DNA of 30,615 bases from a virus (Duplodnaviria > Caudoviricetes), in the IMG/VR virus record IMGVR_UViG_3300020045_000961, positions 1 to 30,615 of that record; one strand, written 5' to 3'. Positions 4,005 through 10,193 of the stretch are shown piece by piece. Positions within the stretch are counted from its first letter, which is position 1. Every line of letters starts with the position of its first letter. The translations under genes and the position numbers were made by a program. The notes beneath the pieces were generated by a model. The model made no database searches. It worked only from the letters and a program-made list of their open reading frames with translations, and was not told the origin of the DNA.

Positions 4005-4799
4005 TTACTTCCAAAGTTGTTGTAGGATTTGAGTTCTTAATTTAGGATCAGAATTGTGATGGAGAATATCAGCAACTTTGATTGCTTGTCTAGGAGTTAC
4101 TTCAACTAAGTTTCTATAGTTTTCAGATAGATAATCTCGTGCTTCTTCAATAATTTTTTCTGGATAGCCTCCGGGAAACTCTTGACAATTAGTGCTCAAC
4201 ATATTGCAGTTCTCAATCAAGTGTAATGTATAACTAAACTTCTGCTCGTCAGTGAAGTTACATTCAGCAAAGTTAAAGCGAGAGAATATCGCTGCTTTCC
4301 ATTGTTTAATTGCTTTAGCGATATCTTCTTTTCGATCATTAGTGATCCAGATGATGTTACCTTGAAAATCAAAATTTGAAGGAACATTAAATTCTTCCAT
4401 CAGTGCATTCTTACGTGCTGTCTCCCAACTTACATCGCCTTTTTGTCCAAGTTCTGCGGCACCAAGTAGCATAGGGATGATTTGACGCTTTTCTCCGTGA
4501 TGAATAATATCACAGTCATCTAAAACAATGATTCTATGCTTTGCTCTATTCAAATAAAGTTTAACGTAAAGTGAGGCTGCTGTAATTTTGCCGCCTTTAA
4601 TATATTCAACATTAGATTGATGTCCTGTATCAATTAATGCCTTCTTAATCCAGTATGTTTTACCTGTTCCTGCATCTCCAGAAACAATCATACCATTAAT
4701 TGCTGAATTTGGATTTTGCACAAAACTAGTTGCTTGTGCATATATGCCTTCGAAGGTATCAGCGACTTCTTTGGCAATGGGGTTCATTTTTATCTTCAT
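4005..4799 (-). CDS. AAA+ family P-loop ATPase
   Basis: Walker A GDAGTGKT, Walker B IIVLDDCD, sensor-1-like IWITN, Arg-finger-like AIFSR. AAGGA RBS. Confidence 0.88.
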   Translation of the reverse strand: MKIKMNPIAKEVADTFEGIYAQATSFVQNPNSAINGMIVSGDAGTGKTYWIKKALIDTGHQSNVEYIKGGKITAASLYVKLYLNRAKHRIIVLDDCDIIHHGEKRQIIPMLLGAAELGQKGDVSWETARKNALMEEFNVPSNFDFQGNIIWITNDRKEDIAKAIKQWKAAIFSRFNFAECNFTDEQKFSYTLHLIENCNMLSTNCQEFPGGYPEKIIEEARDYLSENYRNLVEVTPRQAIKVADILHHNSDPKLRTQILQQLWK

Positions 4800-7143: not shown

Positions 7144-7334
7144 TTTTCATCCTTCTTATATTTTTTAACTGGGATACCTTCACTAATCAGTTTGAAAGCA
7201 TCCTCTCTAGATATCCATTTTAACCAGGCATTATGTTCTGTGCAGAATAATGCTGGTGCAGGATGAGAATTTCCGTATACTACTTTCCATCGTATATCTA
7301 TCTCACACTTATTATGATTTTTAATTTTTGTCAT
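7140..7334 (-). CDS. Small putative Zn-binding protein
   Basis: H..C and C..H pairs plus WLKWIS. Overlaps both neighbours. Confidence 0.6.
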   Translation of the reverse strand: MTKIKNHNKCEIDIRWKVVYGNSHPAPALFCTEHNAWLKWISREDAFKLISEGIPVKKYKKDEK

Positions 7335-8913
7335 TTAATTCTTCTACAAACGGATCTAATTCAGGATCATACTTAGGTTCACCTCTGTATCCTGCATCGT
7401 ATTCGTCACTACCTTTATATACTCTTCTCTTTTCTTTCAAAGATTTTAACTTCTTATAGTTGTTTATTATGTGTAAAGGAATAACACCATTATGAGCAAT
7501 GAATTCTTGATTGGACATAAAATTCTTATGTGCAGTTTCTTCATGAAATGCCCAACCTTCAATTTTAGTCTCTTCAATCTTACCTTCTTTGTTAAAAGAT
7601 TTTAATATCTCACGAATAGTTACTGTATTAACCGGCTTGCGAGTATAGAATGCATCATGACATAATAGTAAGATTTCTGATTCTTCAGAGGCCGCCATTA
7701 GTGCATTCATAATCATGCGTTCTGATTGTTGATAGCAAAATGCAATAACTTTATTAATACTTAATTGTCCACGTTTATTTTTTAATTCTTCCCTTTGAAG
7801 GCCAGGCAGATTCTTAATATCGTTATAAATTAAACGATTCATAATCTCTTGTTCTTCAACAAATTCCTTAACCCAACTATCTTCTAAAAAGATTTTACGT
7901 TTATGTGGATCTTTTAATATCTCAGATAAGGCTGATGTTTTCCAAGTCTTTCCATTATCTAATGTCCATACTGTATTTTGTGCCTTTGCTCCAAACCCTA
8001 TTGCTGTAATTAATTGCTTAACAATCGCAAGTGAGAATTTATTATCTTCAAACCCTATTAGAGCAACCTTAGACTTTCGAATTGCTTCTTTCTTATCTAA
8101 ATATTCTATAGTTGCTGGAAATTTAGCAGTAGGATCTATTTCCGTTGCATTAGATAGTTTCCAGGCAAATACACTATTTTCTAAATCATATTGATAACTG
8201 CGGCCTAGTGCAGCATTGCGAACCTCTTTAGGAACTGATTGTAAATTAACTCCTGTAAGGTATTGTCTACCAAATTCGCTTTCTTTTATTAATTGAGGAA
8301 GACTGAATATACCATACAGTTCCTCTGAGAATGTTGCAAGTTTCTTAATTTTTTTTGCATCATTTAGATAATCATCGATTCTACCATATCTTTTTGGTAA
8401 TGATAGATTTGCAGAGATATATGCATCTAACGAGCGTTGATCTATAGGGGTCCATTTAACAATCTTAGGATTAGTTAAATCTTCTATGTTTTCAATTTTA
8501 TCCAGAATATAGTAAGTGAATAACTCTTCCGGAGTTAGAATAGCCTCAACTTCTTTAGACCATTCTGCATTATGTATGGGAGTTACCATTGTTCTTATAC
8601 CTTTAAAACTATTACCTTTTTCTACTATTGTGACTATTGGATAATGCGTATGTAACCAATCTAGCCAATAATGTTGATTATTATATCTGGGAAGAGTTCT
8701 TCGAATTAATTCCCATTCGAATGGACATGTATTTGAAGTGAGTTGTTCTCCGGTTGCGTAAAGTGTTCCTTTACATATCTGCTCACCAAATAACTCAAAA
8801 TATTGATTCAATATTTGTAAGTGATTAGTTCGTTGCCCGGAATATTCCTTTTGCATCTCGATAATAATCGATGATACATCATAAGGATGATTGAATATCA
8901 ATTTTGCTGTCAT
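7321..8913 (-). CDS. Family A polymerase-like protein (TV-Pol-like), no exonuclease domain
   Basis: GRQY...NLQSVPK..R.A, motif A YDLEN, motif B KQLITAIGFG, N...YQ..E and motif C LLCHDAF, in the Pol A order. Confidence 0.75.
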   Translation of the reverse strand: MTAKLIFNHPYDVSSIIIEMQKEYSGQRTNHLQILNQYFELFGEQICKGTLYATGEQLTSNTCPFEWELIRRTLPRYNNQHYWLDWLHTHYPIVTIVEKGNSFKGIRTMVTPIHNAEWSKEVEAILTPEELFTYYILDKIENIEDLTNPKIVKWTPIDQRSLDAYISANLSLPKRYGRIDDYLNDAKKIKKLATFSEELYGIFSLPQLIKESEFGRQYLTGVNLQSVPKEVRNAALGRSYQYDLENSVFAWKLSNATEIDPTAKFPATIEYLDKKEAIRKSKVALIGFEDNKFSLAIVKQLITAIGFGAKAQNTVWTLDNGKTWKTSALSEILKDPHKRKIFLEDSWVKEFVEEQEIMNRLIYNDIKNLPGLQREELKNKRGQLSINKVIAFCYQQSERMIMNALMAASEESEILLLCHDAFYTRKPVNTVTIREILKSFNKEGKIEETKIEGWAFHEETAHKNFMSNQEFIAHNGVIPLHIINNYKKLKSLKEKRRVYKGSDEYDAGYRGEPKYDPELDPFVEELNDKN

Positions 8914-9028
8914 TTAACTTATTATTTTTATAGGATCCGTTGATTATCACACACGCCAACGGTAACGCCCTTAAGAGAAATAAGTATCCAAAAATGAAAA
9001 AGGATATAAGAAACTCTTTGTGCTACAT

Positions 9029-9062
9029 TATTTATTATAAAGAGAAAATTATCAGGTGTAAA
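9029..9062 (-). promoter_or_regulatory. Composite promoter of the polymerase gene (sigma70 plus TAAATA)
   Basis: TTTACA (9057-9062)-17 nt-TATAAT (9034-9039), overlapped by TAAATA (9029-9034). Confidence 0.65.
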
Positions 9063-9167: not shown

Positions 9168-9216
9168 AGCCTCACACGAGTTTTGAAAGGACTGCGGAGA
9201 GCCTCACACGAGTTTT
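9168..9216. repeat. Two perfect 17-bp direct repeats AGCCTCACACGAGTTTT (iteron-like)
   Basis: Copies at 9168-9184 and 9200-9216 with a 32-bp period, non-coding, next to hairpin 9116-9139. Confidence 0.85.
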
Positions 9217-9655: not shown

Positions 9656-9791
9656 AAAAGAAAACCCCAGGAACACTACTAACGGGGGTTTTCTAATCGA
9701 TACGAACAATATCGAGTGTCGGAGAACAACAATGTAAGCACACAACGATCAAGGAGATCCTAAAATGAAACTAAAAGGATACATGCTTACA
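9656..9791 (-). ncRNA. Putative ~135-nt structured small RNA
   Basis: TAAATA at 9796-9801 just upstream. Stems 9733-9740/9784-9791, 9757-9761/9776-9780 and 9697-9702/9710-9715. Terminal 10-bp stem 9659-9668/9685-9694 plus U tract. No sense ORF. Confidence 0.6.
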
Positions 9792-9794
9792 ATT

Positions 9795-10193
9795 TTATTT
9801 ATCATTGATTTTCTTTTTCATCTTAATATCTTCTGTTTTTCTACAAATAGAACATTTACGTGTGTAACTACCTTCTCGTAATTTATAGACAAAATTCTGT
9901 GAAATAACTTCAGAATCACACAATTCACAGGTGCTTTTTACAGGTTTATGACGAAAAACTACAGGATATATTGTAGAATTATGTTGTTTTAGGTTAGACT
10001 CACTATCGTCAATTTCTTTATATAATTCATCTAACTCGTCTACAGAAATAGGAATTTTCTTTGCGGGGCCTGGTCTCTTAGGTTGGTTACTTGTAGTTTT
10101 AGATCGTGTTTTTAATGCAGTATATGAGTTATGAACAGTCATAGACCAATCGCAAAACTTATCAAGGTATTCTTTAAATTTTATTGCATTCAT
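9795..10193 (-). CDS. Hypothetical protein with C-terminal zinc ribbon
   Basis: CELC...CSIC pairs and a basic N-terminal half. Confidence 0.7.
   Translation of the reverse strand: MNAIKFKEYLDKFCDWSMTVHNSYTALKTRSKTTSNQPKRPGPAKKIPISVDELDELYKEIDDSESNLKQHNSTIYPVVFRHKPVKSTCELCDSEVISQNFVYKLREGSYTRKCSICRKTEDIKMKKKINDK

Follow-up and report, generated by a model that had tools for sequence, protein, structure and literature searches.

A structured non-coding unit carrying complements of translation start sites behind a late-promoter-like box in small tailed phages

The unit at positions 9656..9801 (minus strand) of the phage genome analyzed here is a folded non-coding element that displays the complements of Shine-Dalgarno (SD) and AUG regions foreign to its own genome. 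The window, by which we mean the whole stretch of 30,615 nucleotides, is one complete phage genome (IMGVR_UViG_3300020045_000961) with a terminal repeat of 121 nt. Units of this kind form a real class of predicted non-coding RNA, the architecture of which is conserved family-wide among related small phages. The class has no Rfam entry and is undescribed as far as we searched: the literature covered, which is partial, neither describes it nor treats these phages as satellites. An antisense function of the class is probable. For the window RNA, we consider it an even prospect that it is a late antisense RNA, which would block ribosome loading on the late mRNAs of a co-infecting large phage and would be transcribed with a sigma factor borrowed from that helper.

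The likely genes of the window phage all lie on the minus strand and include those for portal, terminase, scaffold, capsid, tape measure, and tail proteins; the genes scanned included no integrase. The capsid is 31-36% identical to its nearest annotated relatives. Related small phages, of ~30-36 kb, were gathered mostly via a polymerase-like gene, and also via an ATPase and one RNA pattern.

The first-pass annotation had delimited the unit by a TAAATA box and a terminator with a 10-bp stem, and every element that it named is present. The box (9801-9796, minus), a predicted T4-type late promoter, overlaps the last codons and stop of a Cys-rich 132-aa ORF of no known family (9795..10193, minus), which lies upstream of the unit. 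The predicted non-coding RNA of ~135 nt spans 9656..9792, with its 5' end placed ~5 nt after the box, and ends in a predicted intrinsic terminator (9656..9694; stem 9694-9685/9668-9659) with a 16-nt loop and a U-tract. A closing stem is predicted between 9780..9791 (5' arm) and 9733..9744 (3' arm), and relatives have analogous closing stems. Within it, module A (9751..9780) is complementary to AAGGAG, an 8-nt spacer, and AUG AAA CUA AAA, with its anti-AUG and anti-SD predicted to be unpaired; the first of the two antisense initiation regions reported earlier is thus confirmed, with AAGGAG at 9751-9756 and ATG at 9765-9767. The second, site B (GGAG-AACAACA-ATG, 9721-9734), is likewise present, with GGAG at 9721-9724, ATG at 9732-9734, and TAA directly after. 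Its anti-SD is displayed in the loop of predicted hairpin 1 (9717..9731), although most of its anti-AUG lies in the 3' arm of the closing stem. Predicted hairpin 2 (9697..9715) has 7 bp and a UGUUC loop, and its GUUCGU-AUC segment recurs in the RNAs of relatives. The segment noted in the terminator loop, AGGAACACTACT, does lie in the loop of the 10-bp stem and is complementary to AGGAAC, but it contains no AUG. A third antisense site, missed in the first-pass annotation, has its ATG at 9783 and a 3-nt gap. Three antisense SD+AUG sites compare with 0.15 expected from 2000 dinucleotide shuffles, none of which had three.

The minus-strand unit folds at -34.1 kcal/mol (z -3.47; none of 200 shuffles did as well), and its unpaired bases are rich in U and C (44/59), as had been proposed. 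The two hairpins of the fold first suggested were recovered, whereas its branched 5' domain appears in the minimum free energy structure as a large internal loop with one inner hairpin and no branch. Module A can also adopt an AUCC:GGAU hairpin form that is near-isoenergetic (-33.9 kcal/mol, pair probability 0.13); the window RNA shows the module form described below only in this near-equal alternative fold, not in the minimum free energy structure. Folding does not discriminate between the strands, the plus strand doing equally well (z -4.28), and we assign the RNA to the minus strand because of the orientation of the promoter and the U-tract. No antisense match to the unit longer than 11 nt occurs elsewhere in the complete genome, which bears out the suggestion that the displayed start regions are foreign to the phage's own genes. 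Rfam covariance models at gathering score gave no match in the window, where only sub-threshold terminator-like hits were seen, and none in the loci of 12 relatives.

The RNAs of relatives are mostly not alignable to the window RNA by blastn. They have the same layout: TAAATA, a closing stem within ~5 nt, a U/C-rich interior with repeated modules, and a terminator. Each module consists of a hairpin, the loop of which carries an anti-AUG and the complement of the second codon, with the anti-spacer as its 3' arm, followed by single-stranded UCCU. By eye, such a unit is carried by 13 of 14 near-complete records found independently of the RNA, and in several relatives it is placed, as in the window, after an ORF resembling the 132-aa ORF. 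Units were also collected blind, with a box, a terminator, and the lack of an ORF as criteria; the 34 distinct units so obtained contain 19 antisense SD+AUG sites, including the three of the window, and 2 sense sites. These criteria yielded 3 units in 1.09 Mb of jumbo phage DNA and 4 in 0.66 Mb of control loci, which were assumed to be bacterial islands and include at least one small phage (L085). After this, 35 units were picked by eye, and 32 RNAs were left after removal of three near-duplicates; the figures for this curated set carry a selection bias because the units were chosen by eye. These RNAs contain 22 antisense sites and 1 sense site, compared with 6.3 +/- 2.4 (max 15) in 500 shuffles. 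An anti-SD follows 23 of 46 hairpins with a CAU/GCCA loop, in 17 of the 32 RNAs, and 30 shuffles gave 1.7 (max 5) such anti-SD-bearing modules. GCCA lies in loops in 20 of 28 cases, and UCCU is unpaired in 43 of 54. The distance from anti-AUG to anti-SD is 3-11 nt, with 21 of 22 at 5-11, a range partly set by the search window.

Conserved stems with variable loops had been predicted for a covariation analysis. In the one alignable subfamily, of seven sequences, the outcome was different: two-sided changes occur in 10 of 25 predicted pairs, so that the stems vary with compensation, and the loops are invariant. A covariance model of this subfamily found five additional relatives and no jumbo locus, and it did not match the window RNA. 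For this reason, membership of the window RNA in the class rests on architecture, synteny, and 21 nt (9743-9762) in common with the syntenic RNA of the relative L192 (E 0.0025 per genome).

TAAATA occurs 4 times on the plus strand of the window and 19 times on the minus strand, in 14 of these 19 cases in non-coding sequence (p 3e-14). In the curated units, it stands 0-5 nt before the first paired base in all 32, and 2-5 nt before it in 29. The box, its strand bias, its non-coding location, and its position ~5 nt before the RNA agree with what is expected of a T4-type late promoter. Against the late reading, TAAATA is also found upstream of non-structural genes in the window phage. The gp55 late promoter of T4 is described as a single -10-like box without a -35 element (PMC7892883), and the jumbo phage CBB is described as having ATAAATA boxes and a gp55-like sigma, with gp33/gp45 not detected (PMC5259590). 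The small phages have the box in common with these two phages, whereas gp55 is undetected in them. The late-sigma profile phrog_234 matched none of 17 small-phage records of at least 90% completeness, the window included, and it matched 5 of 7 jumbo fragments; Sigma70_r2 matched none of 18 records. Among 74 loci, a local profile of the jumbo gp55 family matched only L042 and L044, which are jumbo fragments carrying a homolog of the window polymerase-like gene (L042 9920-11434; L044 9446-11179) adjoining a gp55-SbcCD cluster. The candidate jumbo lineage is rich in TAAATA and has two gene families in common with the small phages, namely the polymerase-like gene and the ATPase. The absence of a late sigma and the genes in common with jumbo phages support, but do not prove, the borrowing of a helper sigma factor, and helper dependence of the small phage is plausible from its gene content. 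A small activator protein that we did not recognize could possibly read TAAATA instead.

In the mechanism that we propose, the gp55-type late sigma of a jumbo helper would fire the TAAATA box, and because of this the RNA would be present only once the late genes of the helper are on. The hairpin loop would nucleate pairing on the AUG and second codon of a helper late mRNA, the single-stranded UCCU would cover its SD, and the stem may open and pair with the spacer. Translation of the helper would thereby be blocked, and resources would be diverted to the virions of the small phage itself.

The PLE satellite lacks virion genes of its own, unlike the window phage, which carries genes for terminase, portal, capsid, and tail along with a T4-type promoter. 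The cf-PICI, MiniFlayer, and Sputnik/Mavirus elements have their own virion genes and a probable dependence on a larger virus, and virophages use the late promoters of the giant virus. The window phage resembles these capsid-encoding satellites and virophages in having virion genes; it differs in adding tail genes, and its dependence on a larger virus is putative. We know of no multi-guide antisense RNA in capsid-encoding satellites or virophages. Tentatively, and with somewhat less confidence than in the late antisense reading itself, we suggest that a widespread group of small phages encoding complete virions parasitizes gp55-type jumbo phages as virophages do giant viruses, borrowing the late sigma and deploying, on that same signal, a modular multi-guide antisense RNA, each cassette of which would silence one packaging, capsid, or tail message of the helper and would be rewritten as the start sites drift. 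SviR of the PLE satellites is described as a trans-acting sRNA predicted to occlude the ribosome-binding site of a late ICP1 gene; it is one conserved ~210-nt sequence with two seeds and inverted-repeat flanks, and it also regulates PLE mRNAs (bioRxiv 10.1101/2022.04.08.487710). The window RNA would act as SviR does and is alike in having, by prediction, its own promoter and terminator and complementarity to ribosome-binding regions; it differs in that the sequence is not conserved family-wide and the repeated element is a module of hairpin-loop anti-AUG and anti-SD.

The design is simple and repeated, with a loop against AUG and a tail against the Shine-Dalgarno sequence, and it is found in most near-complete genomes of a large group of uncultured phages; it lends itself as a template for silencing several targets at the level of translation. 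Should the targets prove to be helper genes, the guides would record in readable form which jumbo phages the small phages exploit, sRNA warfare would extend past PLE/ICP1, and phage-on-phage parasitism would proceed via a borrowed sigma factor.

Targets were sought in a jumbo lineage taken as one candidate helper, a choice that began from its capsid N-terminus and the ATPase match. The lineage was gathered via its capsid (80 loci and larger records, 1,680 start sites). This is a small part of a very large lineage, estimated at ~7,800 stretches, and the true helper may therefore be absent from the sample. The expectation that guide segments would match start sites above chance failed in this lineage: 8 of 39 displayed start 9-mers matched starts of jumbo families where 11 were expected, and for 20 of 30 modules the predicted duplexes were better with jumbo families than with those of small phages (p=0.18). 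Against control loci, the jumbo duplexes were slightly better (21 of 30 modules, p=0.03). Of 30 modules, 9 did better than 19 shuffles with the jumbo families, but that null destroys the generic features of start sites, and the signal vanished under the appropriate control. An anchored start-site score gave no jumbo excess among the matches listed. For the window RNA itself, the longest exact match in the jumbo set was 15 nt and none was at a called start, and in a comparison with 22 jumbo records all hits were either 14-15 nt long or imperfect; in L027, a 15-nt match is internal to a coding region. Its best jumbo families were the capsid and the gene that follows it (MGRPL), although control starts reach equal energies. 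A 17-mer guide of the window RNA matched 15 viral loci, of which two (identical) are a T4-like capsid start; the matches were treated as chance because the remaining loci are unrelated. When the region or the RNAs were compared by blastn with cultured phages, only chance hits were obtained, and a hit in a Salicola jumbo phage sits at a gene end and not at a start. The multi-target late antisense RNA against helper or host mRNAs that was first proposed thus agrees with the foreign-directed display, the TAAATA box, and the family-wide occurrence, while the target tests were null in this one jumbo lineage.

Three correspondences with jumbo starts, all in the RNAs of relatives and all picked after looking, are leads only. 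The conserved terminator loop of six lineages matches the start of a small-terminase-like gene, ATGACNAAAAA, in 4 of 4 members, and 2 of 2221 control starts match it; two of the four genes have no SD, in line with a guide that lacks an anti-SD. A search of 31 records added no member of this gene family to the 4 already known and the 2 distant cultured members. A conserved MQ module matches the start of the tail-sheath-stabilizer gene, GATAAC..ATGCA, in 2 of its 6 members and in none of the 2221 control starts, and a module of L192 fits the form AAGGAGA..ATGTCAG of the jumbo capsid start.

In their pairing, the guides do not distinguish jumbo from small-phage or control starts, which is what would be seen for an RNA that binds many strong SD+AUG sites whatever their spacer and broadly damps the helper, the host, and even the phage itself. 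The same reading is favored by the homologs, among which spacer arms vary and loops stay, and by a conserved 20-mer without an exact target in IMG/VR, all 7 of its 7 hits being the RNAs themselves. However, such an RNA would also hit the phage's own late genes, and some loops of 10-13 nt are shared by unrelated stems (UAAUGCCAUU by L010 and L020; the anti-MTK loop by six lineages), which exceeds what a generic AUG would need. We regard unspecific binding as unlikely, though worth keeping in view.

Specific antisense pairing may instead be directed at mRNAs of the host, of competing small phages, or in part of the phage itself, which we also consider unlikely. Some guides do match the starts of other small phages best; the best single match of the L192 guide is a gene of another small phage and not the jumbo capsid. 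Of 9 carriers of the anti-MTK loop, 2 (L017 and L031) have a gene of their own that it fits. There is, however, no consistent self match: starts in the carrier's genome rank as expected by chance (best for 3 of 27 modules; mean rank 0.46), and the loop has no own target in the complete genomes L027, L157, and L158 or in the 89%-complete genome L179. As for the host, two guides had no match within 1 mismatch in 401 genomes each of a proteobacterial class/order sample, a weak test since the host group was a guess.

Since convincing targets were not found, the RNA might also act as a protein-titrating decoy, its anti-SD and CAU loop mimicking the 16S 3' end and the initiator anticodon, or some other RNA ligand. 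Short motifs repeated on a stable scaffold would suit such a role. We think a decoy quite improbable, as the anti-AUG/anti-SD spacing of 3-11 nt (partly set by the search window) suits mRNA pairing, and the loops run on into plausible second codons, as such pairing needs, and vary in sequence between modules. The CsrB/RsmZ sponges and the type I antitoxin RNAs are likewise short structured RNAs with repeated single-stranded motifs. The motifs here differ in being anti-SD/anti-AUG on the promoter strand, and 1 of 24 GGA on the RNA strand lies in a loop.

A plus-strand gene starting at 9765 would have a strong SD and a 38-codon open frame (9765-9881) rich in F, L, and I, and the minus-strand RNA would then be the cis-antisense of a hydrophobic peptide in the manner of a type I toxin-antitoxin pair. 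This is very improbable. The plus strand has neither a TAAATA box close by nor a consensus promoter ahead of the frame, and the hydrophobic residues reflect the A-rich end of the ORF on the other strand. The frames behind 22 sites of the family have a median of 16 aa (range 1-44) and are unconserved, the counterpart in L192 having 9 aa. In contrast to type I antitoxins, there is thus neither a conserved cis-encoded peptide nor a plus-strand promoter, and we judge the 38-codon frame to be incidental. That the unit is a mere terminator region with incidental structure and no functional RNA is likewise very improbable, in view of the enrichment, the module architecture, and the compensated stems across many genomes. 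The earlier alternative of a plus-strand CsrA/RsmA sponge with GGA loops is disfavored to the point of being scarcely credible, since, despite several plus-strand GGA motifs and a plus strand that also folds well, hairpin loops on the opposite strands of the 32 RNAs hold 12 of 96 GGA and 4 of 43 ANGGA, below the 16% baseline, and the promoter and U-tract are oriented to the other strand.

The gene by which most relatives were found encodes a 530-aa family-A-polymerase-like protein (7321..8913, minus). Viral scans that used the 132-aa or the 530-aa ORF as a single protein query gave no relatives, and the 530-aa protein had no Pfam or PDB sequence match. Its fold matches, among those listed, are all family A DNA polymerases (TM ~0.35), and homologs (among them those in L042, L044, L076, and L144-L155) are found in small phages, gp55-bearing jumbo phages, and betaproteobacterial chromosomes. 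That it is a T7-like RNA polymerase reading TAAATA is disfavored both by these folds and by the homologs in bacterial chromosomes and gp55-bearing jumbo phages. Minimal family A polymerases, including TV-Pol, occur in mobile elements and viruses (PMC2579912), and the 530-aa protein resembles them in its predicted PolA-like fold. The window ATPase (4005-4799) is a homolog of T4-like nrdC.10, with 26-28% identical homologs in the candidate jumbo lineage. Among the relatives listed, it is 71-84% identical, far above the conservation of the capsid, and interaction with a helper or host machine is a possible reason.

A second TAAATA unit of the window (8914..9034, minus) is the leader of the polymerase gene. 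It has no anti-SD and no terminator, and its fold is unexceptional (z -0.04); it contains a paralogous AUCC-UUUUUCAUUUUU-GGAU hairpin (AUCC..UUCAU..GGAU) at 9005-8986. The hairpin pattern common to both window units, used as a search key, gave 7 loci, all unrelated. In relatives, a second conserved type of TAAATA unit stands before the polymerase gene and consists of a UGGUCUCGUCC hairpin, then UUUGACAUCUC, and a terminator (L017 4303, L054 9208, L061 1055, L034 144, L036 523). A third short type, ACAAG..CUACCUUAGGAC, was seen in three phages (L026 2164, L039 3989, L028 near 5400) and has no antisense start sites. A TAAATA-driven GCACAGA hairpin unit has three copies in one genome (L176 1293 and 708; L177 14501, minus). 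The jumbo small-terminase-like genes of L292 (14212-14688) and L302 start 5 nt after a TAAGTA box without an SD and are probably leaderless.

Two further TAAATA boxes of the window (9652-9600 and 9275-9220, minus) have a terminator within ~50 nt of each and could give very short RNAs. Two near-consensus sigma-70 promoters (11/12) are found on the minus strand at 9583-9555, before a 78-aa ORF, and at 9062-9034, before the polymerase leader, where the promoter overlaps a TAAATA box; they suggest a few host-driven genes and perhaps persistence before the helper arrives. A perfect 17-bp direct repeat (9168-9184 and 9200-9216) with a spacing of 32, in non-coding sequence upstream of the polymerase-like gene, is a possible replication origin, and relatives such as L015 and L017 have tandem repeats at the position equivalent to 9168-9216.
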